NCBI GenBank assembly: GCA_038146805.1
Contig: JAYQSH010000003.1
Span: forward strand, 48,519 to 112,518
DNA: 64,000 nucleotides
Direction of reading: 5' to 3'
Source of the DNA: a bacterium
Lineage (GTDB): Bacteria; Cyanobacteriota; Vampirovibrionia; LMEP-6097
Numbering within the stretch: position 1 is the stretch's first letter; each line of letters starts with the position of its first letter. Of this stretch, positions 2,109-47,039 are shown in pieces. Under the pieces are notes generated by a model, which saw only the letters and a program-made list of their open reading frames with translations, was not told where the DNA came from and searched no databases. The position numbers and the translations under genes are program-made.

Positions 2109-3260
2109 TTAAACCTTGCTAGTTTTGTATTTATTAAGCATTTCTGAGTGTATTAACAATAAATCTTCTAAAGATGGGTTTTTAATTATTTGATGAGCTT
2201 GCATTTCTTTTTCGATGATATTACAAATTTGCAAGTATTTAATTTCTTCTTGCAAAAACAAAGCAACCGCGGCTTCATTAGCAGAGTTATATACCGCAGG
2301 CATAGAATGTGCCAAATTACCAGCCTCATAAGCAAGAGCCAATGCCGGAAATTTTTTAAGATCTGGTTTTTCAAAACTCAAATTAGGGTAAGCAAAAATA
2401 TCAAAATCTTTTTTTGTTTGAATAATGTTTTTGTTTGGATAATCAAGTGCATATTGAATTGGCACCATCATATCTGGCTCACCCATTTGTGCAATAGTAT
2501 TACCATCCACAAAACTCACTGCACTATGAATAATTGATTGTGGATGAATAACCACTTTTATTTGTTGGTAATCTAAATCAAAAAGTGTTTTTGCTTCAAT
2601 CACTTCTAAACCTTTATTGACAAGTGTGCTTGAATCAATAGTGATTTTTGCACCCATAGACCAATTAGGATGTTGCAAAGCTTGTTCTAAAGTTACACTT
2701 TCTAACTGTGCTAAAGAAAAAGTTCTAAAAGGACCTCCTGAGGCAGTAAGCAAAATCTCTTTAACATCGTTTTTTTTGTAATCACCCAAAGCATGATGAA
2801 TAGCAACATGTTCACTATCAACAGGAATCAATTGAGTATTAAATTCTTTGATTTTTTGATTTACCAAATGACCAGCGGCAACCAATGTTTCTTTATTGGC
2901 AATTGCAAGTCTTTGAGCATTTTCAAGTGCAATTAAATTTGCCTCAAGCCCAGCAATACCAACGATAGCACTCAGGCAAATATCAACATTTACACTTGCA
3001 ATTTCTTTTATATCTTTTAAAACTTTTATATCAGGAAATAATTCTTGTATTTTTTTTTGATCGTCAAAAGATTTGATACTAATAAATTTTGGTTTAAATT
3101 CTTGTATTTGTTTTACCAAGAGCTCAAAATTAGATCCTGCACTTAAAGCGATAATCTCAAAATCATTTTTTCTATTGCGAACAATATTAAGCGCTTGAGT
3201 TCCAATTGAACCAGTTGAGCCAATAATAGTTAAGGTCTTTGCTTGAGTGCTAGTTTGCAT
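2109..3260 (-). CDS. dxr: 1-deoxy-D-xylulose 5-phosphate reductoisomerase
   Basis: N-terminal NADPH motif LTIIGSTGSIGTQAL; 383 aa; overall Dxr-like sequence. Confidence 0.93.
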   Translation of the reverse strand: MQTSTQAKTLTIIGSTGSIGTQALNIVRNRKNDFEIIALSAGSNFELLVKQIQEFKPKFISIKSFDDQKKIQELFPDIKVLKDIKEIASVNVDICLSAIVGIAGLEANLIALENAQRLAIANKETLVAAGHLVNQKIKEFNTQLIPVDSEHVAIHHALGDYKKNDVKEILLTASGGPFRTFSLAQLESVTLEQALQHPNWSMGAKITIDSSTLVNKGLEVIEAKTLFDLDYQQIKVVIHPQSIIHSAVSFVDGNTIAQMGEPDMMVPIQYALDYPNKNIIQTKKDFDIFAYPNLSFEKPDLKKFPALALAYEAGNLAHSMPAVYNSANEAAVALFLQEEIKYLQICNIIEKEMQAHQIIKNPSLEDLLLIHSEMLNKYKTSKV

Positions 3261-3302
3261 TAGTTTAATTATAACTTGTTAACACTCACTAGGTACTATT
3301 AA

Positions 3303-3536
3303 GGGCGTGCTTCCAAACCCGTAATAAGTATCTCGAGTCTTTAGATTTGGGCATAAGTAGGGTTTGGTTAGACACGCCTAACAAAAGAATCAAACACCGT
3401 CGCTTAGTGAGTTTCACGCAGTGAAACAAGCTAAGCGTAAGGTCGTTTGTGGGACTGATTTCTAACCCCATTTTCTAGTGATTTTAACATTTCACTGTAT
3501 TTTAAAATTCAAAATGGGGTTTGGAATCAGTCCCAT
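3303..3536 (+). repeat. 234-bp highly structured dispersed repeat, copy 1 (plus orientation)
   Basis: Near-identical copies at 18581..18814 (reverse) and 33755..34177 (interrupted by a MITE). Three extended hairpins: GGGCGTG..CACGCC, CGCTTAG-GTTTCAC-gcag-GTGAAAC-CTAAGCG, and GGGACTGATT..AATCAGTCCC. Confidence 0.85.
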
Positions 3537-3554
3537 TAACAGCACCTAAGATTT

Positions 3555-4742: not shown

Positions 4743-4766
4743 TAAGCTTGGGTTAAATATCTTTAT

Positions 4767-4800
4767 TAAGACACTTCGGACCGTGTTATTTTTGTCTCAC
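4767..4800 (+). repeat. REP unit (taagacacttcggaccgtgttatttttgtctcac) upstream of RAYT gene
   Basis: Same ~34-bp unit recurs at 5594..5664, 25191..25226, 34211..34243, 52511..52544, 53890..53962 and 55375..55408, in both orientations. Confidence 0.8.
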
Positions 4801-4871: not shown

Positions 4872-5591
4872 ATGCCAAGAAAAAACAGAAAATTATTCGC
4901 CGACGCTATTTACCATGTATATTCAAGGGGTAATTGCAAAAAAGAAATTTTTAAATCAGACAAAGACAACAAAATATTTTTAAAGATTTGCCAAGTTGCC
5001 GCAAAAAAATTCAATTTTGCAATTTTTTCTTATGCGCTCATGAAAAACCATTATCATCTTTTAATACAAACACCTGATGCAAACCTGCCGGAGATCATGT
5101 GCTTTATCAATCGAACATATGCAAATTACTTCAATAAAGAATATCAACAAGTAGGCTACGTTTTTCAAGGCAGATATAATGCCAAACTAGTTGACGATAA
5201 TGAATACTTGAGGACTTTAATTGCTTATATAAATCTTAACCCCTATGCCGCAAACATTGTCACTGAACCAAGTACATACAAATGGTCAAGTTGCAAAGAA
5301 CTATTAATGCAAAAAGACTTCAATGGTTTTTTGCATATTAACTATGTTTTAAAACTCACTGGAGATTTTGCCAGCTTTTTAGAGGCACACATCTACGATA
5401 AAAACTTAAAAATGGACTCAGAAATTTTTTACCTGACAAGCAAACTAAAATCACTTTTAAATTCAGACGCATTTGAAAAATTAAATAGCAAATCTCAGGT
5501 AAGAAAACTCAAAGAAGAATATAAGTTAACAGCAAAAGAAATAAGCTCGGTTATAAACTTGTCTAGAAGCAGTGTTTATAGATTAATCTAA
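4872..5591 (+). CDS. REP-associated tyrosine transposase (RAYT), IS200/IS605-type Y1 HUH enzyme with C-terminal HTH-like extension
   Basis: HUH motif HYHLL, catalytic-Tyr context FQGRYNAKLVDD, flanked on both sides by inverted REP units. Confidence 0.75.
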   Translation: MPRKNRKLFADAIYHVYSRGNCKKEIFKSDKDNKIFLKICQVAAKKFNFAIFSYALMKNHYHLLIQTPDANLPEIMCFINRTYANYFNKEYQQVGYVFQGRYNAKLVDDNEYLRTLIAYINLNPYAANIVTEPSTYKWSSCKELLMQKDFNGFLHINYVLKLTGDFASFLEAHIYDKNLKMDSEIFYLTSKLKSLLNSDAFEKLNSKSQVRKLKEEYKLTAKEISSVINLSRSSVYRLI

Positions 5592-5593
5592 TA

Positions 5594-5664
5594 AATGAGA
5601 CAAAAATAACCCGGTCCGAAGTGTCTTATAAATGAGACAAAAATGACACGGTCCGAAGTGTCTT
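5594..5664 (-). repeat. REP doublet (two tandem 34-bp units) downstream of RAYT, opposite orientation to the upstream unit
   Basis: aatgagacaaaaataacccggtccgaagtgtctta then aatgagacaaaaatgacacggtccgaagtgtctta. Confidence 0.8.
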
Positions 5665-5908
5665 AGTAGACAGAAACTAATTTTCTGCCACGTTTTTGTT
5701 CAAATTTTACTTTACCTTCAATAATTGAGTACAAAGTATCATCACGACCGCGACGCACATTGTTACCCGGGTGAAACTTAGTACCACGTTGACGAACGAT
5801 AATGTTACCAGCAATAACCACTTGACCGTCATAACGCTTAACTCCAAGTCTTTTAGACTCTGAATCTCTTCCGTTTTTAGTACTACCTACACCTTTTTTT
5901 GATGCCAT
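5663..5908 (-). CDS. rpmA: 50S ribosomal protein L27
   Basis: [25 protein letters not shown]...[11 protein letters not shown]; no N-terminal propeptide. Confidence 0.95.
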
Positions 5909-5929: not shown

Positions 5930-6253
5930 TTACGCCGCTACTGAAGCGTTGATTTTATTGATTTTCAGTTTTGTGTATTGCTGTCTGTGACCTTGTTTAC
6001 GTCTGTAGCCTTTTTTAGCTCGCATTTTGTAAACCAAAACTTTTTTATCTTTGTTTGTACCGATAATTTCAGCATCGATACTTGCGTTTGCAATAATTGG
6101 CGCACCAATATTAGCAGAGGCAGTATCAGAAACCATCAAAACTCTATCTAAAGTGAGTTTTTCACCAATTTCTTTATCCAGAAGGTCAACTTCTATATAT
6201 TCACCTTCTTCAACTTTATATTGTTTATTATTAATCTCAACAATTGCGTACAT
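5930..6253 (-). CDS. rplU: 50S ribosomal protein L21
   Basis: MYAIVEINNKQYKVEEG...; conserved rplU-rpmA order. Confidence 0.92.
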   Translation of the reverse strand: MYAIVEINNKQYKVEEGEYIEVDLLDKEIGEKLTLDRVLMVSDTASANIGAPIIANASIDAEIIGTNKDKKVLVYKMRAKKGYRRKQGHRQQYTKLKINKINASVAA

Positions 6254-6329
6254 AACTCAAAGAATTGTAGCATTTTGCTTATTTTAGATGTCTAATGTAA
6301 ATATATATAGATTGTTAAAGATTGTGGCG

Positions 6330-9300
6330 TTACGCTGACAGGTTCCATGAAGCCTCTCCTAATTGAACTTTCTCTTTTTGATTAGCAAGCATTATATCCA
6401 AAACATTTGTTGAAGAAAATGGATCTGCTTGTATCCACAAGTCTAATCCAGGTCCTACCGGAGCAGGTCTAGCTGGCGGTCGAGGTACAGCCGGTTCTTC
6501 TGCTTTAACTGGTGCTGGAGCAGGTATCTTAGCTCTTTGAGTTACTGCTTGATAATCATTTTCAAAAAGCTCTAAAAATCTTGCAAAAGAAGAAAGTGAC
6601 TTAGCAAATTCATCTCTTGAAATCATTGTTGTTAGTTGACTTTCTCTTCTTGTCAAATTCTCGTTACCAAAAACTAGATTTAAGTATTCAAACACTGATT
6701 GTTCATCAGCTGCTCTACCTAAGAAGCTCTCAGGATTTGATAGAGATTGAGGATAAGTCTCTCTCAAGAAAGTAGAGATTCTTGAACCTAATTCATTTTT
6801 AAATGCAGTAACATTTAAACTACCATCATTATTGATATAACCCGCTACATACAATCTATCTATGAACTCTTGCTCTGTCATATTTGGATTATATTCTTCA
6901 CCATAGTTATTAAATCTATTAATAAAGTCTGTAGCAGCTTGAGCATTAGCTCTTGCTTCAGAGCTATTATCGACAGGAACAACTTGCCCTCTTTCATTGG
7001 TGTTATAAAGTTCAGCGGCTGTTCTATTAGGATCATAAATCATGCCAAATCTGTATGCTAACTGCATAAGCTGTGAAAAATCACCATTAATATTGACTTC
7101 TCTTGTTTGTCTATCAACATCAAAACCAAGATTTTGCACCAAGCTATCTAAAGCTCTAGGATTAAGATCATATCTAACACTATGATCAGCTTCTTTAAAG
7201 GCTTTGTAAGGTTCATAAAATCGTAAATCTCTATCAGCAAAAGCTAAAAGTGAGTCAGATAGTCTTTCATCATTACTATTAATAAAATCCAATGCATCTC
7301 CATCAGCACTTCTTAATAGAGCATCAAAAACTCTAAATCTAGCTGCCATATCATCATCACCAGAGAAACTAATCTCTTCTAAATATTTTTCATAAGCATT
7401 GGCAAAAGCTCTATTATTAGGATCCATTAATTTTTCTCTAAAAGCTTTCATATCAAAATCTTGTGGTCTAACAAGATCAAAATCAAAAGCAGCATAACTT
7501 TTTAAATCTCTTGCAATACCAGGATCAACACTCTCTGCTTGTCTCATCTTAAAGAGTTGCATTAAAGCTCTTCTTTGAGCATCTATATCAGTAATCCCAG
7601 CTTTTGTTAAATCTTCAACTAAATCCTTATTCTTATCGATAATAGATGCTGGAATAGAATCAGATTGATATAACTGATAAAACTCTGTTAAATTCAAATC
7701 TAATTGATTCTTGTATTTGTCTTCAGCAAGAAGAGTATTAAGTTTTGCCATTTCAGCTTTTAAACCTAATCTATCAAACTCAAGTGCATCTAGATACATC
7801 AAACCAGCATTATCATTATCACTAGCACGAAACTCATTAGCAGCAGTAACTAAATCAGCGATATCACTATCAAAACTCTCTGGTAACTTACCAATAGAGC
7901 TAAGGTATTCTCTGATTTTAGTAAGTTTTCTATGATTAGGACTTTCACCTCTTGCAATCTGCAAGCCAATATCAGTGATTAAGTCATTTATATAATCAGA
8001 ACCTGAACCACTCATACCATCTGCAAAAGCAGCAAAAATTTTCATTGTCTCTGAACCACCAAGCTCTTGAGTTTCAGGTGGAATATTTAAACCTAGTGCA
8101 GCAATAATGCTATCAAAATTTGTATCTAAAGTTACTGCAACTTTAGAGATGTCCGTTTCAGCTAAAGAACCTACAATACTATCAATTGCAGATTTTACAG
8201 CCTCATCAGCAAGTTTGGTATCGATAGTAGCAACATCATGACCGTAAAGTGCTAATTTTGTTCTTAAAGCTTCGTCAATTCTGTCTCTAAGATCAGCTTC
8301 AGGATCAAGATCAGCTTCAGGATCAATATCTACGCCTTGTTGTTTTTGGTTAATTCTTTCAACAAGAATTCTTGAGATATAACCTTTAAGTGATTCATTT
8401 AGTCTATCATTTAATCTCGGTAATGAAGCCACTTGCTCTTGATAAGTTGTTTGAGAAAGACTCATTTGATGAATAGTTCTCTTTAATGTCTCTACACCCT
8501 CTGCATAGATAGCTTTTGCTTCATCAATAGCCTTATCAACACTAACTTGAGCTCTAGAACGAAGTTGAGTTTTAATCTCATCCATCTTTATATTTTCAGA
8601 TTTAGTATAGTTTTCAAGCTTTCTAACTTTAACATCAGCAGGTTTAGAATGATCATACTCAACAGCATTAACAACCCACTGATTATTATCAGCATCATGT
8701 TGTTTTACAACTGTCGTAGTTTTATCATTATCAATATATCGATAGACTTTGTATTGATTTATATCAAAATCCTCAGCTTCAACATTGATACCCATAGTTT
8801 TAAGAAGTTTAGTTTTTTTATCACCTGTTATTTCTACATCATGATTAATTAATCCAGTAGTAAAAGTAGCAGTACCAGCAGCAGTTAAAATAGCTATTTT
8901 ATCTGCTTCTGCTGCTGTATCAATAATACCTACTCTTATCACATCCATTAATTGAGCTAGTTCTTCTTCAGTGATTTTTTCACCACCATCGCTATTTGCC
9001 TCACAAAAACCATCTGCTCCAGTAGCACCTGCATAAATTAACTTTTTGAGATTGGTCTTAGTAGCATCATCAAACGAAGAAATTAAACAATGAAGGACAT
9101 TATTTCTTTCTTTCCAAGCTTGCATTAAATCTGCTGAATATCTCATTGAAGATTCGTAATCATTGTTATCAAAAACAGCAAAAATCTCTTCTAACTGTTT
9201 TACTCTCTCTTCAAAATTCTGAGCAGTAGTTCCTGCTGTCTTCACCTCAGAATAAAGAGACTTATCAACAACTGCATCATTATATGTTTTTGTGCTAGAA

Positions 9301-9962
9301 TTATATTCACCATTGTTATAAGTAAAGAACTGCATATCAGCAGCTCTAAGTTTAGGATTAAATACTCTTATAAAATCAACAAATTCTTGTACTCTTGCTT
9401 TCTTGTCTTTTGGTTCAGCAGTGCTAATCGCATCAGAGAGAGTCTTACGATGAGCTTGTAACATCTCCGTAATCTCATCTCTAACATTATCAACCATCCC
9501 TGATTTAGACTCATCAAAAAGAGTTAAAACTTGTGCCATCTGTCTTGGATCAGATACTCTTGTTAAAGATCCGTTTGTAACCAGTTCATCAACATCACCA
9601 CGAAGATCAGCTAGGGTAAGATCATACTCTGATCTTGCACCATTATCACTAGTATAAATGTTACTTGTTTTGTATACTTCAATCTTACCTTCACCGTTTA
9701 ACCTAATTCTTAAACCGAAAGTTGGATTTGCGTACCTATCACCTTCTTCAAAAACTAAAATAAAATCATTATCTGCAAGTTGATCAACTCGAATTTTGTC
9801 ATCATCGCTATAGTTCGTATACCACTGATCTAGAAACTCTGTTTTAGGAACTTCATCATTAGGACCAGCGTATAAAGTATCTACTAATTGTGTCACTCTT
9901 TGAGGTAAATTTGTTGTTTGATTTGCATAGATCGAAGCTGAATTAATATCGTTCATATACAT
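6330..9962 (-). CDS. very large hypothetical acidic protein (1210 aa) with internal DLDPEA tandem repeat and Pro-rich C-terminus
   Basis: Long uninterrupted ORF with normal codon periodicity; no recognised catalytic motif; repeat DLDPEADLDPEADL near 8291..8336; C-terminus PAPAPVKAEEPAVPRPPARPAPVGPG. Confidence 0.7.
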   Translation of the reverse strand: MYMNDINSASIYANQTTNLPQRVTQLVDTLYAGPNDEVPKTEFLDQWYTNYSDDDKIRVDQLADNDFILVFEEGDRYANPTFGLRIRLNGEGKIEVYKTSNIYTSDNGARSEYDLTLADLRGDVDELVTNGSLTRVSDPRQMAQVLTLFDESKSGMVDNVRDEITEMLQAHRKTLSDAISTAEPKDKKARVQEFVDFIRVFNPKLRAADMQFFTYNNGEYNSSTKTYNDAVVDKSLYSEVKTAGTTAQNFEERVKQLEEIFAVFDNNDYESSMRYSADLMQAWKERNNVLHCLISSFDDATKTNLKKLIYAGATGADGFCEANSDGGEKITEEELAQLMDVIRVGIIDTAAEADKIAILTAAGTATFTTGLINHDVEITGDKKTKLLKTMGINVEAEDFDINQYKVYRYIDNDKTTTVVKQHDADNNQWVVNAVEYDHSKPADVKVRKLENYTKSENIKMDEIKTQLRSRAQVSVDKAIDEAKAIYAEGVETLKRTIHQMSLSQTTYQEQVASLPRLNDRLNESLKGYISRILVERINQKQQGVDIDPEADLDPEADLRDRIDEALRTKLALYGHDVATIDTKLADEAVKSAIDSIVGSLAETDISKVAVTLDTNFDSIIAALGLNIPPETQELGGSETMKIFAAFADGMSGSGSDYINDLITDIGLQIARGESPNHRKLTKIREYLSSIGKLPESFDSDIADLVTAANEFRASDNDNAGLMYLDALEFDRLGLKAEMAKLNTLLAEDKYKNQLDLNLTEFYQLYQSDSIPASIIDKNKDLVEDLTKAGITDIDAQRRALMQLFKMRQAESVDPGIARDLKSYAAFDFDLVRPQDFDMKAFREKLMDPNNRAFANAYEKYLEEISFSGDDDMAARFRVFDALLRSADGDALDFINSNDERLSDSLLAFADRDLRFYEPYKAFKEADHSVRYDLNPRALDSLVQNLGFDVDRQTREVNINGDFSQLMQLAYRFGMIYDPNRTAAELYNTNERGQVVPVDNSSEARANAQAATDFINRFNNYGEEYNPNMTEQEFIDRLYVAGYINNDGSLNVTAFKNELGSRISTFLRETYPQSLSNPESFLGRAADEQSVFEYLNLVFGNENLTRRESQLTTMISRDEFAKSLSSFARFLELFENDYQAVTQRAKIPAPAPVKAEEPAVPRPPARPAPVGPGLDLWIQADPFSSTNVLDIMLANQKEKVQLGEASWNLSA

Positions 9963-18814: not shown

Positions 18815-19336
18815 ATTATTAATAGATCAATTAAACTCACTTGATTCAGTCTAGGAAGTTTAGGTTCGTCATATTTAGAGGAGGTTAAGTATATATATCA
18901 CAAGTATGGCACTCAGCCGTTTTACTGCAGGACCAATAGAAGTTGCATTTAATGTTTGCACTACCAATGCAACTTATGAAATGTAGGATATCTCACAAAG
19001 ACTCGTTGGTGGTTATGAAACAACAAGCATGAATGTTATGGCAGAGATAATGAGAAATGTTAGGATTTCTCTTTTAACTCTAGAGTATCACTACTATAGG
19101 AGTACTTATTGGGCTTAAAATAGCTAAGCTAGATATTAAGGTTGCTGGTAAAATCAAAAGACTTATATAATTTATAAGAAAAGAATTTTCACAGCAATTA
19201 GGTACCATTTCAGCAGATAAAGTTCACTCAACAAGAAATAATTATCTAGGTTAGTTGCTAAATAACTTCACAAAAAAACTAGATAACTTTCTGTTAAAAC
19301 ATAGTTTTAAAACTAAATAAGAAAAAGGGAGAGTAG

Positions 19337-19537: not shown

Positions 19538-19584
19538 CAAGGCTATTTTGAGCTTTATAAAGGTTTTGGGCATAATACAGTCAT

Positions 19585-20358
19585 ATGAAAATCCTTATTT
19601 CAAACGATGATGGAATTTGGGCTGAAGGAATTAGCAGCCTAAGTTCGGTACTTGCAAAAAGCCACGAAGTTTATGTCTGCGCGCCTGATCGCGAGCGCTC
19701 AGCAACTGGACATTCAATGAGCTTACACAAACCTCTAATGGTTACACCAATGAAAGCATCTGACATCAACAGCAATGCTCAAGCCGCTTTTATGACATCT
19801 GGCACACCTGCTGATTGTGTCAAAATTTCACTTGGCGCACTTTTTAAAGAAATAGAGTTTGATTTGATGGTATCTGGCATCAACCATGGTCCTAACCTCG
19901 GAGTTGACGTATTATACTCAGGCACTGTGTCTGCGGCAATGGAAGCGATGCTTTTTGGTTTACCTTCTATTGCTTTTTCGCTTTACAGCTACACCTCAAA
20001 AGAATTTGACGATGCGGCACATTGGGCAAAACAATTTATAGAAAAAAACAAAATCCAAAAACATATACCGGCAAAATCATTTTTGAATATAAATATTCCG
20101 CCCGGAGCTCGCGATAATTACAAAGGCGTTGAAGTAACCAAACTTGGTAACAGAGCCTATTGCGAAAACTACGAAGAGCGTCAAGACCCACGAGGTAACA
20201 AATACTTTTGGCTTGCTGGCGCACCAATAGAAGGACTTGAAACCGAAGGTACAGATGGTTGGGCATTGATGAACGGAAAAGTTTCAATTACGCCTGTGCT
20301 TTTTGATATGACCTATAGAGATCAAATTGAAACCTTAAAAAGCAATTTAAAAATATAA
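19585..20358 (+). CDS. surE: 5'/3'-nucleotidase SurE
   Basis: MKILISNDDGIWAEGISSL...PDRERSATGHSMSL. Confidence 0.93.
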   Translation: MKILISNDDGIWAEGISSLSSVLAKSHEVYVCAPDRERSATGHSMSLHKPLMVTPMKASDINSNAQAAFMTSGTPADCVKISLGALFKEIEFDLMVSGINHGPNLGVDVLYSGTVSAAMEAMLFGLPSIAFSLYSYTSKEFDDAAHWAKQFIEKNKIQKHIPAKSFLNINIPPGARDNYKGVEVTKLGNRAYCENYEERQDPRGNKYFWLAGAPIEGLETEGTDGWALMNGKVSITPVLFDMTYRDQIETLKSNLKI

Positions 20359-20373: not shown

Positions 20374-20555
20374 TAAACTGATGCTCTAAACTCCACCTGA
20401 ATCTTATAAAAGCCTTTAAAACAAAGATATATTAAGAGTTTTTTGATACATACAGTGCCATACTGTAAATACAAAATAAAATCATCAAAAGTCTTTTAGT
20501 TATATTGGTTTTTTGAAGATTTATATTTTCAGGTGGAGTTTAGAGCATCAGTTTG
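20374..20555. mobile_element. MITE (~182 bp) carrying the IS1-family terminal inverted repeats taaactgatgctctaaactccacctg / caggtggagtttagagcatcagttt
   Basis: Same termini as the transposase-bearing IS at 22878..23919; internal sequence ~90% identical to the copy at 53971..54152. Confidence 0.85.
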
Positions 20556-20619
20556 TAAAACCTAGCATCATGAGGGTAATTGATATCACTAAGCTTAGAG
20601 CAATGATAAAATTTTTCAG

Positions 20620-22115: not shown

Positions 22116-22886
22116 TTGAAAAAACAGCCGCATTTAATTTTAATTTTATTGATACTTTTTTTAAGTAGCCAATCTCTACATGCCAAATTTTGTGAAACAA
22201 TAAACGAAGCGGATTTGTGCTTGAACAGTCTTTTAGAGCATAAACTTTTTGATTCTTCAGCAAAATTACACGCAAATTATTTGCCAATACTTGCTTTAAG
22301 AGCACTCGCTCACGCTGATATCTATAAAAAGAAAAAAGATTTTAAAATTGAAAGATTTTTTTTTGAGAATGATAAAGTTTATGAAAAAGATACAGACGAG
22401 CTTCCATACGCAAGTTTAATCGGTGTTGGCAAAGTTTCAGGCAATGGTTTTTTTGGTAGAGAAGTTGAATTCGCAGGCACTTTAAACGCACATACAGTCA
22501 AATACAAAAACGTAATGAAATTTAGTTTGCCGCGCAGAGCTGACATGCAAGTAAATGCTTGGCTTGATGAAATTGAGTTTTTAGATTTACAAATTCAAAG
22601 TGATGCAGACAAAATGACCAATGATGTAAGTGGTAAATATTTTGGTAAAGCTGTAAAGTACCATACTGCACACAGAGATAGTTTTGGTATCCTCGCTGAT
22701 ATCCCTTACAAATTACACACAGAAGGTAAAGTAAAAGAAGATGATTTATTTCATGCAGTTACTGATGGATTGATAGACGAAAACAAAGTAACTGGAGCTG
22801 TCAATTTTATAGAAAAAAATCATTACTACTCTATTGAGCATTATGGACCAATTAGAGTTGAAACTCATATAAGAATCTTAAACTGA
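22116..22886 (+). CDS. secreted hypothetical protein (signal peptide MKKQPHLILILLILFLSSQSLHA); stop codon supplied by the IS terminus
   Basis: ORF ends in TGA inside the IS left terminal repeat (aaactgatg). Confidence 0.55.
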   Translation: MKKQPHLILILLILFLSSQSLHAKFCETINEADLCLNSLLEHKLFDSSAKLHANYLPILALRALAHADIYKKKKDFKIERFFFENDKVYEKDTDELPYASLIGVGKVSGNGFFGREVEFAGTLNAHTVKYKNVMKFSLPRRADMQVNAWLDEIEFLDLQIQSDADKMTNDVSGKYFGKAVKYHTAHRDSFGILADIPYKLHTEGKVKEDDLFHAVTDGLIDENKVTGAVNFIEKNHYYSIEHYGPIRVETHIRILN

Positions 22887-23919
22887 TGCTCTAAACTCCA
22901 CCTAAGCCAAAAATCTCATACTAAAAAACCACGTAAAGAAATCTCCTCATTATCAATCACCATATTATGAAAACAAGCATAAATATGCATTAAATGTTCA
23001 AGATTGACAATCTTTTTTGTGGTGCACCAAGTTTTACGACTGAGCCTTTTTACATTGTCGCGAAACATAGCGGCACTATGATTCAAGCTAAAAAGTGGAT
23101 CCCAACCAGTTGCCTTGAGCTCACCTTGCCCCACGACACAGCCACGTCTCCCTTTGTATGACAGTGTTGTAGCGCCTGCGAAAAATTCTTGAATGAGCGC
23201 AGGGTAATGCCAAGATTTATCAGAAATAAATAGCGTTAATTTGTTACAACAAGCTTGAAGTTCACTAAACATTTTGCGCAGTGTTTTTTTGCGCTCACAA
23301 CTACGTGCGCCATATTTTTTCTTGGCAATTTCAGCCAAATGCCCTTTAGCGCGAATTTTGCCAACGTTTACGCTTAATATTTTTCTGCTTTGCATTTCAA
23401 CGGCAATTGCCATTGTCAAAGGCTTACACTTAGTGTGTTCAAAGCTTTCCATTTCATCAAAAACCAAATCTGTAATCGGCGGGATTTCTTCGCGGGATTT
23501 GGCTAATTTTTTTCTTGCACATAAACCCAAGCGCACTAATCTTCTAGAAATTGTGCGAGGTACGACGCTTAGCACAAGCGCACAAGCCCGCTCCGAAAGC
23601 CCTTTGCAGAGTAGCTTAAAGCATGATTTATTGATAAGTCTTTTTTGTAATCGGTAATCAAACCTAAGTGTCTGCTCAGAAAAATTTTTATTACAGCTTT
23701 TACAAAAAAATCTTTGTATGATTTTTCTATCTGACTTTCTAATATGTGTGCCTTTTTTGATGACTTTTTCTCTGTTTTTACAGCAGGGCATGGGTATTGT
23801 TTCATTTTGAATCCTCCAAGTACAAAATATTAGACAATACTTGACTTTTTATGGGGGGTCAAAAGGCTTTTTTTGATGCTAATTAGGTTTTATTAGGTGG
23901 AGTTTAGAGCAGCAGTTAA
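22878..23919 (-). mobile_element. IS1-family insertion sequence (~1.04 kb) with 26-bp terminal inverted repeats
   Basis: TIRs ttaaactgatgctctaaactccacct (22878..22903) and aggtggagtttagagcagcagttaa (23894..23919) bracket a single transposase ORF. Confidence 0.85.
22916..23791 (-). CDS. IS1-family transposase (single-ORF InsAB-like)
   Basis: N-terminal zinc-finger CKNREK...CKSCNKNF then an HTH (LSERACALVLSVVPRTISRRL) then a DDE-like region; architecture matches IS1 InsA-InsB. Confidence 0.8.
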   Translation of the reverse strand: MPCCKNREKVIKKGTHIRKSDRKIIQRFFCKSCNKNFSEQTLRFDYRLQKRLINKSCFKLLCKGLSERACALVLSVVPRTISRRLVRLGLCARKKLAKSREEIPPITDLVFDEMESFEHTKCKPLTMAIAVEMQSRKILSVNVGKIRAKGHLAEIAKKKYGARSCERKKTLRKMFSELQACCNKLTLFISDKSWHYPALIQEFFAGATTLSYKGRRGCVVGQGELKATGWDPLFSLNHSAAMFRDNVKRLSRKTWCTTKKIVNLEHLMHIYACFHNMVIDNEEISLRGFLV

Positions 23920-25190: not shown

Positions 25191-25226
25191 CTTGAGACAC
25201 TGCGGACCGTGTCATTTTTGTCCTAT
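25191..25226 (+). repeat. REP unit (variant gagacactgcggaccgtgtcatttttgtcctat)
   Basis: Member of the RAYT-associated REP family. Confidence 0.7.
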
Positions 25227-25298
25227 TTATTATTTAATGTCAAACAAAACACAAAAATAGAGGCGTTTTCAATAAAATTAAGATAGTTGGTAAAAAAA

Positions 25299-25484
25299 TT
25301 AAACTGCTGCTCTAAACTCCACCTGACTAGTTAAAAACTATTGTAAATAGTGTGTTTTGCAGAGTTTTTTTAGGAGATAGTCAGGTGCTTATGTAATTAC
25401 AAAATAATAATCCCTTAAATTCAAATATTGTAAGGCTTTTTTTTTGATTTTTTATTTTCAGGTGGAGTTTAAAGCATCAGTTTA
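25299..25484. mobile_element. MITE (~186 bp) with IS1-family TIRs
   Basis: ttaaactgctgctctaaactccacctg ... caggtggagtttaaagcatcagttta. Confidence 0.8.
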
Positions 25485-25526
25485 TAAATTACAAAAAAAA
25501 TTTCTAGCTCTATAATAAAACAAGTA

Positions 25527-26636: not shown

Positions 26637-29600
26637 CTAAGAATTAGTGCTAGATAAACTAGCAGAAGCTAGAATTTTTTCTAAAGCACTTAGCGTTTCA
26701 TCATTATCGTTAATAGTATAACGTGAGCCCAGTGATACTTTGACCTCACGATCCATAGATTTTAACTTTAAAATCAAAATCTTTTTACCAAAATTTTCTG
26801 ATCGCGACATAAAAGCTTTGAGACTATGAAAAAACTGAAAGTAATCATCAAGCTGGTCAACATCAACTTGCATATTTATAGTACCCATACCATCAAGATC
26901 TTCAAGGCTTTCTACCATGATAGACTGATCTCCCTCAGAGTGTTTCGACAAAGTACCCTTCACCAACAAACGCTTACCTTTAACGATTAATTCTTCAAGA
27001 TCATTAAGCTGTCTACTAAAAACCACACCTTCACAACGTGATTCCATATCTTCTAGTTGCATAATACAAATTGGTTTTTTTGATTTTGTGATTTTCTTTT
27101 GAAAATTTGTAATCAAACATGGAACACTCACCTTTGCACCATCTTTACGATTTTCTAAACTCTTTAAAGTATCACTTGCAATAGTAGAAGTCAAAGGTCT
27201 AATGGAAGCCATAGGGTGATTAGACACAAACAAGCCCAAAAGCTCATATTCACTAGCTTGTTGCTCTCTTTCTGTAAACTCTTGTTCAGCACCACCCACA
27301 AATTGAGGAGCTTGATTAAAAGCAAAATCATCACCAGCAAGTGCAAACAAACTTTCTTGTCCTTTTGCTTCTTGCTCTCTAAGTTTTTTTGCAGAACCAA
27401 TAAAGATCTCCAAGTTATCAAACATGGCTTTGCGACCAGCTCCTAAATTATCAAGTGCTCCTGATTTTATTAAAGATTCAGCAGTTTTTTTATTGAGGGT
27501 TTTAGGATCAAGCCTTGAACAAAAATCATAAAAATCTTTAAAGTCACCATTAAGTTGTTTTTCTAAAATAATTGCCTGTGAAGGTGCATCACCAACACCT
27601 TTGATAGCACGCAAACCAAAAGCAATATAACCACTTGGCATTTCACCATTACTTAATTTCAACTCTTGATTTTCATATTCTTGCAAAGGAGTAAAATCCT
27701 CTTTTGATAAATTCACGTGAGGTGGCACTACTTTTATTCCAAGCCTCTCAGCTTCTATGATATAAGACTTAAGCCTGTCAGTATCACCACTTGAAGACAT
27801 CATCAAAGAACTTAAATATTCAACAGGATAATGTGTTTTTAGGTAAGCAGTTTGATAGGTCACAAAACCATAAGCAGTTGAATGCGACTTATTAAAACAG
27901 TACTCAGCAAAAGCTAACATCTGCTCAAAAAGTTTTTCTGCAAGCTCTTGAGGCACAGGGTTAGCATTAGCCGCACAACCTTTAACAAATTGATCTTTAT
28001 AAGGTAATAAAACTTCAGGTTTTTTCTTACCCATTGCTCTTCTTAAAAGATCCGCTTCACCCAATGAAAAACCACCAAGCTTTTGTACAATAAGCATAAT
28101 TTGTTCTTGATAAACAATTGTTCCATAAGTAGTTTTTAAAATTGGTTCAAGCAAAGGGTGCTCATACTTGATTTCTTTTTTACCTGATTTACAAGCAATA
28201 AATTCATCAATCATTCCAGTATCTAAAGGACCCGGTCTATAAAGAGCAATCAAAGCAGAAATATCTTCCATATTTCTTGGAGCTAAATCTCTAGCTACTT
28301 GTTTCATTCCTGCCGAAGTCTCCAACTGAAAAACTCCTGCCAAATTACCACTGCAAAGAGTATCATAAGTAGCTTTGTCATCAAGCGGAATATTGTCGAT
28401 ATCAATTTTATTACCAGTTCGCTCTTCTATCATGACAAGAGCTTTTTTAATCATGGTCAAGTTACGTAAGCCCAAGAAATCCATCTTGAGCAAACCCATA
28501 TCAGCACACTCTTCCATTGGAAACTGCGTAATAATACTACCATCATTACTTTTTGAGATTGGAATAATCTGATCAACAGGCTCATCAGAAATAATCACAC
28601 CAGCCGCATGTACACCAAAAGTTTTGTTTAGTCCTTCATTTTTTAGAGCAAGATCTATAACTTCTTTTGCTTCAGGATCGTTTTTATATTTTTGAGAAAA
28701 CTCATCATGATTTTCTATCATCCAATCAATTGATCGCGGCTTACCACGAACAACAGGAATTAATTTTGCAAGTTCCTCTGCCTTTGCATAAGGGTACTCC
28801 AAAACTCTAGCCATATCTTTGATAACTGAACGTGAAGTAAGACGGTTAAAGGTGATAATTTGACAAACACTCTCTTCACCATATTTTTCACGCACATACT
28901 CTATAACCCGCTCTCTACCATCAATACAAAAATCCGTATCAATATCGGGCATGCTTTTTCTTTCTGGATTCAAAAACCTTTCAAAAAGCAAATCATATTT
29001 CAGAGGATCAATATTGGTAATCCCCAAACAAAAAGCCACCAAAGACCCAGCCGCAGAACCACGACCCGGACCAACAGGAATATCTTGTTGACGTGCCCAA
29101 TCAATAAAGTCCCAAACAACAATAAAGTAAGAAGCAAAACCAGAATTATTCATGATTTCAAGCTCTAGATCTAACCTTTCTCTAATTTCTTTACTAAGCT
29201 CACCATTAAAACGCTTATGAGCACCTTCATAAGCAAGTTCTCTCAAATAAGTTTCAAAGCTATGCCCCTCAGGTATTTTAGGGTCTGGCATATGCATCTT
29301 CGGATTCGCCAACAATTGATAATCTGCAATTTTATTATAGATCTCAGTTGGTGTTTGATATACAGCATCCAAAATTGCATCACTAGGTAAATGATCTTGA
29401 AAAAGTTGCATCATTTCAGAACCAATCTTTAGGTATTCATGCGAAGAAAATTTCATTCGTGGAAAATCAGAAATATATTTTTGTGTTTGCAAACACAAAA
29501 GCGCATCATGAGCGCTTGCGTCTTCTTGGTTGGTATAGTGGCTATCATTAGTTGCTACAAGCTTGATACCAAGCTCGTTTGCCAAAGCAAGTAAACGCGG

Positions 29601-30186
29601 ATTAACATCCTTGTCTTCTTGATATTTATGATCCATAATTTCGATATAAAAATCATCTTTAAAAATCTTTTGGTATTCAAGCGCCGCTTCTTTTGCCTCT
29701 TCGTCTTTGTAATTGAGCATTAAGTTTGAAACCTCACCGCCAAGACAAGCAGATAGAGCGACCAAATCCTGTGAATATTGTTTCAAAAATTCTTTTGAAA
29801 TTCTGGGCTTGTAATAAAAACCATTGATACAAGACTCAGAAACAATTTTAATTAGATTCTTAAAACCATTATCATTTTTAGCGAGTAAAACCAAATGATA
29901 AAGCTTACATCTATGCTCTTTACCTTTTAGAGTATGATCATTATTAATCACATAAACTTCACAACCAATAATTGGTTTTACCCCATGATTTTTTAGCAGT
30001 GTTATAAAACTTATAAGCACCAAACATTGTGCCATGATCAGTTAATGCTAAACCCGGAATATCATTTTCTGCGGCTTTTTTACAAATATCCTCAAGTCGA
30101 GACGCACCATCTAACAAAGAAAATTCTGTATGCAAATGCAAAGGAATATGTTTTGCTTCTTTAAGTTTGTCTTGAACTTCTGGCAC
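26637..30186 (-). CDS. dnaE: DNA polymerase III alpha subunit; frame interrupted at a T6/A6 run (29989..29994), leaving the N-terminal PHP segment in ORF 29959..30186 and the remainder in 26637..30035
   Basis: The N-terminal fragment HIPLHLHTEFSLLDGASRLEDICKKAAENDIPGLALTDHGTMFGAYKFYNTAK continues in another frame as NHGVKPIIGCEVYV...; the rest reads as full-length DnaE. Confidence 0.9.
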
Positions 30187-31246: not shown

Positions 31247-31265
31247 TATTGAGCGAAATTAAAAA

Positions 31266-31692
31266 AATGAGTTAATAATAAGCCGGGTTCTGTATGGCTT
31301 GCGCCATTAACTATCATCTATCTGGACCTAAGCATTACTGCTAGGTTCATGCGGAATTCACAGACCCAAAAAGTATACGAGTAATTCCTTTTTGGTTAAG
31401 CCTGCTTACCTTGCAGCTTCAGCGGGGTTTACCGAGCCTAAGCTTCTCAACTTAGCTGGTGAGCCCTTACCTCACCTTTACACCCTTACCTTTGTGACAC
31501 CGAACTTTGATTTAAGACCAAAGATGCTAAAGCAAAGTTCGATATCACAATTCATCCTTGCGGATTAAGGCGGTATTTTTCTGTGGCACTATCCTCACGT
31601 TCACACGTACTGGCAATTAACCAGCAACCTACACTCATATACTGCCCGGACTTTCCTCTCAAAAAATTGAGCGATAGTCTAATTAACTCAAA
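31266..31692 (-). ncRNA. rnpB: RNase P RNA, bacterial type A
   Basis: Reverse strand carries GAGGAAAGTCCGGGC (P4), AGTGCCACAGAAAAATACCGCC, AAGGTAAGGGTGTAAAGGTGAGGTAAGGGCTCACCAGC, GGTAAACCCCGCTGAAGC and the 3' ACAGAACCCGGCTTAT. P1 pairs GAGTTAAT (31682..31689) with ATTAACTC (31269..31276). GC content is well above the surroundings. Confidence 0.88.
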
Positions 31693-33733: not shown

Positions 33734-33754
33734 TCCAAGAGTAAAACAAATAAA

Positions 33755-34177
33755 GGGCGTGCTTCCAAACCCGTAATAAGTATCTCGAGTCTTTAGATTT
33801 GGGCATAAGTAGGGTTTGGTTAGACACGCCTAACAAAAGAATCAAACACCGCCGCTTAGTGAGTTTCACGCAGTGAAACAAGCTAAGCCTAAGGTCGTTT
33901 GTGGGACTGATTTCTGACCCCATTTGCTAGTGATTTTAACATTTCACTGTATTTTAAAATTCACTAACTGATGCTCTAAACTCCACCTGGAAATATAAAT
34001 CTTCAAAAAACCTATATAAATAAAAGACTTTTGACAATTTTATTTTGTATTTAGCGTGGCGCTACATGAATCAAAAAAGTCATAAAATACCATTGTTTTA
34101 AAGGCTTTTATAAGATTCAGGTGGAGTTTAGAGCATCAGTTAGTAAAATTCAAAATGGGGTTTGGAATCAGTCCCAT
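33755..34177 (+). repeat. 234-bp structured repeat, copy 3, split by a MITE insertion (33964..34143) with 9-bp target duplication taaaattca
   Basis: 33755..33963 matches the 5' 200 bp of the element, 34153..34177 matches the last 25 bp; taaaattca is present on both sides of the MITE. Confidence 0.85.
33964..34143. mobile_element. MITE (~180 bp) with IS1-family TIRs, inserted into repeat copy 3
   Basis: ctaactgatgctctaaactccacctg ... caggtggagtttagagcatcagttag; internal sequence is the reverse complement of the 20374/53971 MITEs. Confidence 0.85.
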
Positions 34178-34208
34178 AAACTAAGGGTTTTTGCATAAAT
34201 TCATTTAA

Positions 34209-34685
34209 TCATGAGACAAAATCAACACGGTCCGCAGTGTCGCATTGTCTGAAAGCTTCATAGAACACTGTTTGCACAGTACTTGCCAAATTTAAACTGC
34301 GTGAGTTTTTTGAGCGCATCGGCACAGTAATAGCTTGCTCTTGAAATTCATCTAATAATGCTTGTGGTAACCCTCTTGTTTCTGGACCAAAAACCAAAAA
34401 ATCATTTTTTTGATATTCCACATGCCAAAAACTTTTTTTTGCTTTTGTTGTCAGTAACCAAAACCTTGCTTCTGGATTTTGTGTCAAAAAATCTTGCCAA
34501 TTTTCATATAACTTAAGTTCTAGATATTGCCAGTAGTCTAAAGCTGAGCGCTTTAGGTATTTGTCTGATATTTCAAAACCCAAGGGCTTTATCAAATGTA
34601 AAACCAAATCATTAGAGACACACATGCGAGCAATATTGCCTGTGTTTTGCGGTATTTCTGGTTGGTATAAAACAATATTTATCAT
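34209..34685 (-). CDS. trmL: tRNA (cytidine/uridine-2'-O)-methyltransferase, SpoU/TrmL type
   Basis: 158 aa; MINIVLYQPEIPQNTGNIARMC...FGPETRGLP; SPOUT family. Confidence 0.78.
   Translation of the reverse strand: MINIVLYQPEIPQNTGNIARMCVSNDLVLHLIKPLGFEISDKYLKRSALDYWQYLELKLYENWQDFLTQNPEARFWLLTTKAKKSFWHVEYQKNDFLVFGPETRGLPQALLDEFQEQAITVPMRSKNSRSLNLASTVQTVFYEAFRQCDTADRVDFVS
34211..34243 (-). repeat. REP unit
   Basis: atgagacaaaatcaacacggtccgcagtgtcgc. Confidence 0.7.
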
Positions 34686-37234: not shown

Positions 37235-39772
37235 ATGGGACAAAGTGACAATTCTTCACTTGGTCAATTATTTAAATTTATTCGTCATGAAACTAAGTAT
37301 CTAGACTACGCAAGTACTCTTGCCAAAGAGTTAGTAAAATCACTAGAAGATGGTGATAACAAACGTTTACCAGCACTAGCTGACACTAATAAAGATTTCA
37401 GAGAATTACTTGCTGAAAAACTTTTAGCAAAAAACTTCCAAATTAAATCTGGTGATATTAGAGTTAACTCAAAACTTACTCTTAAACCACTCAGAGTAAA
37501 AGGTAGTGAGCTTGATGAAATCAGAAATGCAAAAGCTGGAACGAACAAAGATACTACTTATACTCTAAGAGATGTTCTCAAACAAATGGCTGCAGCAAAA
37601 GATCGTAAAGCGAGAGCTAGCGCTGTTGCTAAGTATGCAGACATGAATAACATTCTTGAATTCAGATTTGGAAAAGCAGTGCAAGATATTAAAGCTGCTG
37701 AGCACCATATTCAAGCTGGTACTGCAACGATGCCAGGTACAACAACAACACCTCAAGAAGCTAAAAGAGCTGCTGAGAGAAGGGCAAACGATTCAGCTGA
37801 ACAACTTGAAGCACTTCACTTAGCTGTTAAAAACGCTACTATCATGGGTGACTTCAAAGAAATGTTTGAAGAGTCAATTGGCTCATATGGCGTAATGCTT
37901 TTATCATCAGAATTACCAAAATCTATTAACTCTGTAACAGCACCTGAACTAGATGCCACAGTTAAAAGAGAAATCTCTAGACTTCGTGACTTAGGCATGA
38001 ATCCTACTGAACAAACTGATGAGCAGATTATAGATAAATCAAATGACCTTACTAAAAGTTTAAGATCAGACAAAGAAAATCTTTCAGACAAATTAATAAA
38101 AGCTTTCTTTGGTAAAGAAGGTCTTTCTACAGAAGATTTATTTGAGGCTAGAGTTTTTGCAAAAGTAGCAAGTCCTGATATCAATCCATCAGAAAGAACT
38201 GAAAGTCTTGTCACTCTAAAATCTGAGATTATTGAAGACTTCTTATCAAGTAAAATGCCTACAAATCGTGATGGCTTAATAGATATAAGTGATAAAGCTA
38301 CACAGGAAGTTTTTGAAAGATACATAGATCCTATTCTTAATGGAACTACTAATCATAATGGAGATTTTCAAACTGGTGGTCCTTTTTCTGTAGCCGATTT
38401 AAGAGCAGCTTTAAATGAAGATGATGTATTTGCAAATCTAATTGATCATTGGTCTAACCAAACTATCCAATATAATAACTTTAGAACAAGCCCACCAGGA
38501 GCTGCTCAAACTGCACTTAACGAACTTGATGCAATAAGAGAGAAAGTAGTAGAGTTTGATTATAATAATACTCTAGTTAACAACACTAGTGCTATAGACG
38601 CAAAGGTCAAAGCGTCACTAGAAAGTGCTATTAAAAAAGGAGCTTTTCAGGATGGCGTTATAGGCTCTGATAAATTCAGTACTATATTAGACGCACTTGA
38701 GAGTAGCGGTCACGCCGGTAAAATCAAGTCTTGGAAAAGCGCACTAGATAGCTACCAATCTAATAAATCTAAAGCTGCCACAGCAGTACTTGAGATTTAT
38801 GATGCAATGCAAACTGCGCCTACTGGTCATAGTGCTTATGCAAATGGTCCACAAGATGCTTTCAAAAAGATTTCTGATGCTCTTGAATTAAAAGAAGAAT
38901 CAGTTTTAACAGAAGAATCAAGTTTCAAAGAAGATTTAGGTTCTGCAATTGCAACCTTATATGAAGCAATTGCAAACGAAGATCCTATCGACGATAAGAC
39001 TGGTGGTTTAACACTACTTCAGAAAATCATTGAACAAGATGAAGAAGAAGCGAAACGTGCTCCAGTTCAGGAGAAATTGTTCAAACAGGACAAGAGAGGT
39101 TACTTCGAGTACCAAATGACTATTGATAATGGTTTTGATGGTCAAGATTTTGATCCTGAGCTTAGAGTAGTTGCACTTGGAAGATTGATACAAAAAATCA
39201 AAACTTCTGGAGCTAGCGAAGAAGAACAACAAAAAGCTGTTCAGTATATCTTAGGTAACCTAAAAGAAAATACGTCAAATAATTTTGACCCAAGAGTTCC
39301 TATCACTCTTTTAACAGAATCAGATAGGATTTTAGGTGGAAATACTTTTGATAACTTTCATAAATTACAAAGAGAAGAGGCGCGATATGGTTATGCAAGA
39401 GCAGCTGTAAATGCCAAGAAATCAGAATTAGCTGGTGGCATGCTTTACAGAATGTTTGACAGATCTATAAAATCTTCTTCTGGTGTATTTGGTAAATTAA
39501 AAGCAGCTCTTGAGAAAATTCGTGATATATTCTCTGGTGGAGACACTCTTGAAGCAGCAAATAGATTAAAAGAAGACTCTGATCCTAGTATAGTTCCTTT
39601 CAAAGCTGCTTATGATAGAGCAAAAGGCAATGGAAGTGATGACTACGCTTATAAGTCAAGTTTAAAAGCTTCACCAGAGCAAGATCAAGAACATATAGAT
39701 GTTTTTCTTGCAGCATTGAGACATGTTGATCAAAGGCTTGCTCAAAGAGAAGCACCTGACGCGCAAGCTTAA
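37235..39772 (+). CDS. large hypothetical hydrophilic protein (845 aa from the first ATG; the frame is open upstream to 36776, so the true protein may be ~990 aa starting near GTG 36804)
   Basis: 155 stop-free codons upstream of the ATG in an AT-rich context; SD plus GTG at 36804 sits one frame off, consistent with a 1-nt indel in the caaa run. Confidence 0.65.
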   Translation: MGQSDNSSLGQLFKFIRHETKYLDYASTLAKELVKSLEDGDNKRLPALADTNKDFRELLAEKLLAKNFQIKSGDIRVNSKLTLKPLRVKGSELDEIRNAKAGTNKDTTYTLRDVLKQMAAAKDRKARASAVAKYADMNNILEFRFGKAVQDIKAAEHHIQAGTATMPGTTTTPQEAKRAAERRANDSAEQLEALHLAVKNATIMGDFKEMFEESIGSYGVMLLSSELPKSINSVTAPELDATVKREISRLRDLGMNPTEQTDEQIIDKSNDLTKSLRSDKENLSDKLIKAFFGKEGLSTEDLFEARVFAKVASPDINPSERTESLVTLKSEIIEDFLSSKMPTNRDGLIDISDKATQEVFERYIDPILNGTTNHNGDFQTGGPFSVADLRAALNEDDVFANLIDHWSNQTIQYNNFRTSPPGAAQTALNELDAIREKVVEFDYNNTLVNNTSAIDAKVKASLESAIKKGAFQDGVIGSDKFSTILDALESSGHAGKIKSWKSALDSYQSNKSKAATAVLEIYDAMQTAPTGHSAYANGPQDAFKKISDALELKEESVLTEESSFKEDLGSAIATLYEAIANEDPIDDKTGGLTLLQKIIEQDEEEAKRAPVQEKLFKQDKRGYFEYQMTIDNGFDGQDFDPELRVVALGRLIQKIKTSGASEEEQQKAVQYILGNLKENTSNNFDPRVPITLLTESDRILGGNTFDNFHKLQREEARYGYARAAVNAKKSELAGGMLYRMFDRSIKSSSGVFGKLKAALEKIRDIFSGGDTLEAANRLKEDSDPSIVPFKAAYDRAKGNGSDDYAYKSSLKASPEQDQEHIDVFLAALRHVDQRLAQREAPDAQA

Positions 39773-45849: not shown

Positions 45850-46395
45850 ATGGGTCACGCAGCATCAATACTTAAAAGACGATACACCAATTTTTCAGAT
45901 CTCTGAAGAGAATAAAAACTTCGCTGATTTAGGAGTTCTAGGAAGCATGGTGCTTCTAGATACTATGGGAGATGATCTTTCTATTGTGAACGCTGCAAGA
46001 GTTTCTTATGCTTCTGAATCTGATGCATTTGAAGAGCGTGACAAAAAACTAGTTAAGTATTTAGCGAAGCACAAACACTGGACTCCATTTGAACAAAACT
46101 CTCTTAAGTCTAAAGTTTAGTGTCCTATCTATATTGCTCGTCAATGGATGAAACATAGATGCTGGTTTTTCAACGAGATCTCTGTTCGCTATACTATTTT
46201 TGATAACACAGTTTATAAACCAGATGATTTTCGTAAGTAAGCGTTGCTTCTGAAGATGAAATAAACCAATAAAAACTGCAGCGATTTATTCAAGTGCAAC
46301 AAAAATTCGCCGAAGATTCATATAACCAATTACTTGAATTAGGGTTTTTGGGAGAACAAGCCCGTGGAGTGCTTCCCGTAGGTTCGCGCACTTAG
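45850..46395 (+). pseudogene. decayed thyX copy (frameshifts and in-frame stops), ~80% identical to intact thyX
   Basis: atgggtcacgcagcatcaatacttaaa... parallels 47536 onwards; TAG/TAA stops, e.g. at 46118 and 46237. Confidence 0.8.
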
Positions 46396-46465
46396 ATTAA
46401 CACGTCCCTCCCCCGAACCTTGTCATTTTATCTCATTTTTTTAAAAGCTTTAATTTAAAAAAAGT

Positions 46466-46729: not shown

Positions 46730-46772
46730 TTTTGGATTTTAGTCAAAAATGCTATCGTGATTTAAATTAATT

Positions 46773-47039
46773 CTATATTGCTCGTCAATGGATGAAACAA
46801 AGATGCTGGTTTTTCAACGAGATCTCTGTTCGCTATACTATTTTGATAACACAGTTTATAAACCAGATGATTTTCGTAAGTAAGCGTTGCTTCTGAAGAT
46901 GAAATAAAACCAATAAAAACTGTAGCGATTTATTCAAGTGCAACAAAAATTCGCCGAAGATTCATATCACCAATTACTTGAATTAGGGTTTTTGGGAGAA
47001 CAAGCCCGTGGAGTGCTTCCCGTAGGTTCGCGCACTTAG
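46773..47039 (+). pseudogene. second internal thyX fragment (tandem duplicate of 46127..46395)
   Basis: ctatattgctcgtcaatggatgaaaca...gtaggttcgcgcacttag repeated. Confidence 0.75.

Follow-up and report, generated by a model that had tools for sequence, protein, structure and literature searches.

The window analysed here, a 64-kb stretch of DNA, contains three copies of a hairpin-rich repeat, found as the original prediction had it at positions 3303 (+), 18814 (-) and 33755 (+), and 98-99% identical to one another over their shared length. When complete copies from the window and from metagenome loci are lined up together with their flanks, the element proves to be exactly 232 bp long, running from GGGCG to GTCCC; the length of 234 bp originally proposed takes in two final bases that are part of a target-site duplication. 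The ends are imperfect terminal inverted repeats of 18 bp that agree at 15 of 18 positions (GGGCGTGCTTCCAAACCC versus GGGACTGATTCCAAACCC, the latter being the reverse complement of the right end), and the end-to-end match between the termini ceases beyond these 18 nt. The sole ORF inside the element has 57 codons, continues into the flanks and is lost in the 59-75-bp derivatives described below. The element is thus non-coding, as had been proposed, but the frameshifts said to distinguish the ORFs of different copies are not present: these ORFs, of 58-80 aa, keep one frame and diverge only in the flanks.

Copy 1 (3303-3534, + strand) lies 42 nt upstream of the start codon of dxr (2109-3260, - strand) and is bounded by ATTAA at both 3298-3302 and 3535-3539. 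Its left terminal inverted repeat (3303-3320, + strand, GGGCGTGCTTCCAAACCC) doubles as the 5′ arm of hairpin 1 (3303-3379), and its right terminal inverted repeat (3517-3534, + strand, GGGTTTGGAATCAGTCCC) as the 3′ arm of hairpin 3 (3451-3534); the central hairpin 2 (3391-3449, + strand) is a near-palindrome, CGCTTAGTGAGTTTCAC...GTGAAACAAGCTAAGCG, which is absent from the 59-75-bp derivatives. Copy 2 (18583-18814, - strand) is flanked by ATTAT, as read on the + strand, at 18578-18582 and 18815-18819. Copy 3 (33755-34175, + strand) is in two parts, 33755-33963 and 34153-34175, with a nested insertion between them, and its ATAAA duplication (33750-33754 and 34176-34180) spans the whole 421-bp composite. 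The nested insertion is a 181-bp MITE of a different family (33964-34144, terminal repeat ...AACTGATGCTCTAAACTCCACCTG) with its own 8-bp duplication AAAATTCA at 33956-33963 and 34145-34152, in agreement with the earlier view that copy 3 had itself been a MITE target. Perfect 5-bp duplications are therefore found at three of three window copies, where no obvious target duplication had been reported.

Other mobile or repeated sequences are interspersed with these copies. The nested MITE belongs to a second family of about 181-190 bp, with terminal repeats AACTGATGCTCTAAACTCCACCTG, which is present at 20374-20557, 25299-25488, 33964-34144, 53971-54154 and 56197-56386. An apparently intact IS1-like insertion sequence of about 1.04 kb occupies 22881-23917, has 25-bp terminal repeats, AACTG(A/C)TGCTCTAAACTCCACCTAA, and carries an ORF (22916-23791, - strand) for a 291-aa transposase which matches NCBIfam IS1 at 7e-13, below the cut-off, has no Pfam match, and belongs to a large family (over 3000 relatives in databases, about 295 aa long). 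A RAYT gene (4872-5591, + strand; Pfam Y1_Tnp, 1e-14; NCBIfam REP_Tyr_transpos, 4e-16) is flanked by inverted copies of a REP of about 37 bp whose hairpin reads GACACGGTCCGAAGTGTC. This REP recurs across the window and the metagenome loci, at times as tandem doublets, with window copies at 4760-4799, 5591-5665, 25191-25227, 34198-34241, 52499-52542, 53888-53961 and 55362-55405.

Two genes in the window have been partly duplicated. The 5′ end of surE and the region upstream of it recur some 1.3 kb upstream of the intact gene (19585-20358), the two versions being 91-94% identical, and copy 2 abuts this fragment duplication as originally noted (18262-18480 matches 19566-19783). Three other strains (L094, L096 and L101) are without the segment corresponding to window positions 18453-18962, the junction falling at the microhomology ACCAATG, and on account of this absence and the surE duplication we regard the copy 2 region as structurally polymorphic. 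Between 45812 and 47460 there are tandem repeats of about 643 bp (46128-46736 versus 46772-47379, 95-100% identical) together with a more diverged copy; these are thyX fragments, the intact thyX lies at 47536-48321, and in relatives thyX occurs just once at this position (L104).

Seven ORFs of 395-1210 aa (6330-9962, 13046-14233, 37235-39772, 40987-42612, 43151-45751, 56459-57691 and 57681-59690) have no Pfam match, and the 1210-aa ORF has no NCBIfam match either; the syntenic regions of related species contain large ORFs (590-1090 aa) without recorded Pfam matches, which are comparable by position only. The 541-aa ORF at 59687-61312 (- strand) joins a histidyl-tRNA-synthetase-like (HisZ-type) domain to a HisG ATP phosphoribosyltransferase domain, a fusion that is kept in related species (L104 and L107). 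A full-length RNase P RNA of bacterial class A (31264-31690, - strand, 213.5 bits), one helix of which carries a large insertion compared with the model, is the only Rfam match at threshold in the window.

The best named relatives of the window's seryl-tRNA synthetase, at 73% identity, are in MAGs labelled 'Candidatus Melainabacteria' and 'Cyanobacteria bacterium', and on this comparison the host is a non-photosynthetic relative of the cyanobacteria, with about 34% G+C. The window and the metagenome loci have no single-copy DNA in common, so that their relatedness rests on the three repeat families that they share. In two related species, at about 73% nucleotide identity, the syntenic 21-kb regions contain no copy of these three families, but the matching stretch of the window is itself without a copy, so that the comparison carries little weight. 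A protein search with the internal ORF of the 232-bp element returned just five clusters, each at least 95% identical, and no relative below that level. The family looks young and confined to its lineage.

The first 20 nt of the element match 76 metagenome stretches, almost all of which come from a single family of samples, with about 70 distinct left junctions among them, whereas no left end was found in viral contigs. The scan of a genome collection for the left end yielded one chance match (L001) and one MAG contig (L002, JALRAZ010000443.1, from the MAG 'Verrucomicrobia bacterium HM.1'). Because this contig is 97.6% identical to a Melainabacteria-like metagenome population, its Verrucomicrobia label is probably wrong. 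At 6122-6355, 23 bp from the contig end, it carries a palindromic form of the element, in which hairpin 1 is followed by hairpin 2 and by hairpin 1 again, both inverted; this is probably an assembly chimera, since its two flanks occur separately on two other contigs (L037 and L077).

Comparison of flanks across copies reveals an insertion signature in the form of cognate 5-bp duplications. Among 27 distinct complete copies from the window and the metagenome loci, the duplication is perfect in 19 and has one mismatch in five, whereas only 5.4% of non-cognate flank pairs match perfectly by chance. The target consensus is WTWAW, with T at position 2 in 18 of 19 cases and A at position 4 in all 19. 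We considered and rejected a shorter, 3-bp TWA duplication of the IS5/Harbinger-like type, in which the outer positions would match by chance and for which the calculated expectation of a match at all five positions is about 25%, against the 19 of 27 observed. Relative to the adjacent gene, copies are oriented without bias (32:32).

Two of the window's sites are seen both with and without the element. Contigs carrying other alleles of the copy 3 site were located in public assemblies by way of the exact TrmL protein that adjoins this copy. In four of them (L084, L090, L091 and L092), which encode the same TrmL protein, the site is empty, with a single ATAAA and the sequence reading through as ...AAAACAAATAAACTAAG... 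/ ...GTAAAACAAATAAACTAAG...; in five others (L083, L085, L086, L088 and L089) it is occupied, the nested MITE included. The copy 2 site is empty in a more divergent strain (L093/L097, about 84% local identity), where it falls inside an intact, uninterrupted ORF of 187 aa, and a one-ended remnant of the element lies at the copy 2 site in L102. Insertion of the element is recent and strain-variable.

Internally deleted forms that retain both termini and a 5-bp duplication also occur, one of 75 bp at six or more loci, one of 59 bp at two loci and one of 58 bp at a single locus. The 75-bp form is the expected product of deletion between two GGGTTTGG direct repeats, and the recurrence of short forms could therefore reflect repeated deletion in place between these repeats, not transposition of the short forms themselves. 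The 421-bp composite of element and nested MITE recurs at one further locus, where its flank is different (L013), and at another locus (L068, 953-1198) two right-type ends surround the nested MITE in inverted orientation. A 23-bp remnant consisting only of termini, GGGCGTGCTTCCAAACCCGTCCC, lies near positions 4680-4702 of L050. Because the deletion derivatives, the composite on L013 and the L068 form all retain ends, it is the termini that are propagated, and not the interior.

Taken together, the terminal inverted repeats, the 5-bp duplications, the empty sites, the deletions that keep the ends and the presence of dozens of copies make it very probable that the 232-bp repeat is a non-coding, non-autonomous MITE that has spread recently. 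A non-autonomous mobile element was among the candidates originally listed, and it is the one that stands; a structured sRNA and a recombination hotspot, listed beside it, do not accord with the duplications and the precise empty sites. The MITE family is new, its host genome Melainabacteria-like, and the element an ordinary kind of selfish DNA. The transposase that recognises its ends, probably a DDE enzyme, would be encoded at another place in the genome. Insertion at AT-rich WTWAW targets with a 5-bp duplication implies that the target is cut with a 5-bp stagger, followed by gap repair.

We have compared the element with several bacterial MITEs, namely Correia/NEMIS of Neisseria, ERIC, RUP, QMITE of Coxiella and Nezha of cyanobacteria. 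It resembles them in being small, non-coding and multicopy, in having terminal inverted repeats and a target-site duplication, and in its AT-rich, mostly intergenic targets, very stable predicted fold and strain-variable copies; all these traits are listed in a 2024 review (PMC10969869), which treats stable stem-loop folds and AT-rich intergenic targets as generic to MITEs. It is somewhat unusual in consisting of two terminal hairpins and a central palindrome in place of one long hairpin from end to end, and its 5-bp duplication is less common among MITEs than duplications of TA or of 8-9 bp. We found no sequence similarity to any described MITE family, and, in the set of papers searched, none beyond one large-scale IS survey that joins MITEs with Melainabacteria.

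A likeness in size and target is offered by the TIMEs, MITEs derived from Tn3, which have duplications of 5-6 bp, AT-rich targets and 38-bp repeats homologous to the ends of Tn3-family elements, and which are usually single-copy, a feature attributed to transposition immunity (PMC4133298). The element is of similar length (232 bp against 262 bp for TIME), inserts into AT-rich sequence, has termini that begin with GGG, and has a 5-bp duplication that fits the 5-bp (or 6-bp) duplications of TIMEs. It is unlike them in that its terminal repeat is 18 bp and its copies number in the dozens, and the Tn3 end sequence is not known to share more than the leading GGG with the element's ends. A different resemblance is seen to IS1 and IS6/IS26, whose ends follow a GGnnnTG rule (PMC10425158 Table 8; PMC6807381). 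Both ends of the element fit it (GGGCGTG and GGGACTG), and when the outer 14 nt are compared with the ends of E. coli IS1, taken from plasmid R100, 10 of 14 positions agree on the left and 11 of 14 on the right, with the shared pattern GGnnnTGMTnCCAA. The duplications made by IS1 and IS6 are nevertheless 8-9 bp long (PMC10425158; PMC6807381), with which the 5-bp duplication of the element disagrees. Judged from their sequence, then, the ends appear similar to IS1/IS6 termini, but the duplication length fits neither family.

The mobilising transposase was sought in several ways. Neither in the 64-kb window nor in 457 kb of related metagenome loci did we find an autonomous partner, defined by the end motifs lying 0.7-9 kb apart with a matching duplication, and the 495 ORFs of the 457-kb metagenome loci include no multicopy ORF. 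No DDE or Tn3-type transposase was found by Pfam in 29 ORFs of the window, a set that includes all those of 395 aa or more except for a 1132-aa ORF at 26637-30035, and Pfam and NCBIfam together gave no autonomous partner among the 29. The window's IS1-like transposase was rejected as belonging to the parent of the 232-bp element, the ends of its insertion sequence and of three homologues being AACTG...; because these ends are shared with the nested MITE family, the IS1-like element is likely, from this comparison of termini, to be the parent of that family and not of the 232-bp element.

The strong predicted fold of the element raises the question of whether it also functions as an RNA. On the + strand it folds into three long hairpins, as originally described, with a free energy of -102.8 kcal/mol (z = -12.3 versus shuffles); the - strand gives -82.3 kcal/mol (z = -8.4). 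The third hairpin is indeed long, at about 23 pairs. For the consensus the RNA fold is likewise stronger on the + strand (-101 versus -79 kcal/mol), whereas DNA parameters give almost the same value for both (-52 versus -50). This asymmetry is reflected in the pairs themselves, as in the consensus the + strand has eight G·U pairs and not a single A·C, and the - strand lacks G·U altogether. If transitions away from a perfect palindrome had equal odds, we calculate p of about 0.008 for this result. Recognition purely as double-stranded DNA fails to account for such an asymmetry, which leaves room for a role at the RNA or single-strand level.

Selection on the fold in individual copies is a separate matter, and it was addressed by counting the minimum-free-energy structure on an alignment of 20 full-length copies with a mean column identity of 97%. 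Not one of the 80 pairs has both sides changed, and all covariation measures equal their shuffled values, with the limited power that 20 copies diverged by about 2-3% afford; this outcome counts against the RNA reading for which covariation had been proposed as a check. With two divergent copies excluded, there are 30 substitutions in 160 stem columns versus 10 in 72 unpaired columns, and the 27 changes away from Watson-Crick pairing comprise nine to G·U, six to A·C and 12 to other mismatches, so that 18 of 27 are pair-breaking. This is a pattern of neutral decay. The A/G difference in the third stem that had been read as compensatory does exist, but G (as G·U) is present in 19 of 20 copies and the A is private to copy 1, the site recording a single, one-sided G-to-A transition. 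No promoter-like or terminator-like sites were found inside the element, and an Rfam scan at gathering and permissive thresholds, also proposed earlier, gave no family at threshold that might explain it, the only matches being to microRNA-type hairpins, all at less than half the gathering score. The strength of the fold can be accounted for by the layout of the element, as each terminal repeat would pair with its own internal inverted copy and the centre is palindromic, giving three hairpins; we infer that these are a by-product of the architecture and not a selected RNA fold.

These observations bear on whether the MITE might also work as RNA, with its + strand fold acting as a stabiliser, a processing site or an sRNA, mostly within neighbouring mRNAs, and with a master sequence that was under RNA-level selection. 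The G·U asymmetry of the consensus and the very low z-score are what such a role would lead one to expect, copy 1 is probably inside a transcript given its position just upstream of dxr, and regulatory MITE transcripts have been described (PMC10969869). Individual copies nonetheless decay neutrally, with stems as variable as loops; they show no orientation preference relative to genes, derivatives without hairpins 2 and 3 persist, and there are no transcription signals of their own within them. The asymmetry, moreover, is one observation on one master sequence and could be caused by strand-biased mutation, and we consider an additional RNA role unlikely.

A more specific proposal, and the one preferred in the original prediction, is that the repeats are a multicopy family of structured small-RNA genes, paralogues that are kept for their RNA product. 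The stable fold, the near identity of the copies and the G·U asymmetry are all compatible with it. It does not account for terminal inverted repeats and 5-bp duplications, for presence and absence among strains with precise empty sites, or for dozens of copies of which some are truncated or internally deleted; in addition, one copy interrupts a homologue of an ORF, covariation is absent, Rfam gives no match, homologues below 95% identity were not found, and the element is absent from the examined syntenic regions of related species. None of the tests run lends support to a conserved structured RNA gene, and the small-RNA gene family is already contradicted by these observations; we regard it as very improbable.

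It is comparably hard to credit that the repeat is mainly a recombination hotspot or a rearrangement scar, its copies spread by recombination and not by transposition. The copy 2 region is structurally variable, containing the duplicated surE fragment and differing between strains by a 510-bp indel, the left flank of the L013 copy is common to L058 while the right flanks differ, and there is the palindromic chimera on L002. Recombination does not, however, yield precise empty sites, or 5-bp duplications that are cognate at 19 of 27 sites; the flank swaps may be assembly chimeras of short-read metagenomes, as the separate occurrence of the two L002 flanks illustrates, and any dispersed repeat can be expected to recombine between its copies as a secondary effect.

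The presence of a RAYT gene in the window invites comparison with the REP/REPIN elements, which are likewise hairpin-forming dispersed repeats. REP elements lack target-site duplications, whereas the 232-bp element has one, and the window RAYT has a different REP family; REPs are also far shorter, being palindromes of 20-40 bp (PMC3733652). That the element is REPIN-like or IS200/IS605-like, and that the Y1 (RAYT) transposase whose gene lies 1.3 kb away mobilises it in single-stranded form, agrees with the proximity of that gene, with its Pfam and NCBIfam matches, and with the hairpin-rich, strand-asymmetric character of the element, but can be set aside as extremely improbable, and the RAYT gene rejected as mobiliser, on the strength of the target-site duplication and terminal inverted repeats (Y1 transposition makes no target-site duplication and does not need terminal inverted repeats), of the different repeat that flanks RAYT at 4760-4799 and 5591-5665 and has its own copies in the window, and of duplication sequences that vary, contradicting insertion 3′ of one fixed tetranucleotide.

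The interpretation that the 232-bp repeat is a recently spread MITE can be extended in two more speculative directions. Its transposase may belong to an undescribed group that combines IS1/IS6-like GGnnnTG ends with target cuts staggered by 5 bp at WTWAW. The master copy, for its part, may be under strand-specific structural selection as RNA or single-stranded DNA. We think both improbable on present evidence; if true, the strand-specific selection would point to a transposition intermediate or to an adopted RNA role unlike those of ordinary MITEs.

The finding reveals no new RNA class and no new mechanism, and its value is modest. What it adds to the record is a high-copy MITE family that has been active recently in an uncultured Melainabacteria/Vampirovibrionia-like lineage, together with a second MITE family and its IS1-like parent and a REP/RAYT system, in a group whose mobile elements have barely been described. 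There are also consequences for the way in which these genomes are read. Short-read assemblies are broken by the element, with contigs ending inside copies, it has probably created chimeric MAG contigs such as L002, and spurious 'hypothetical proteins' of 60-90 aa are called inside its copies. The presence/absence polymorphism of the copies, in turn, offers a possible strain marker.
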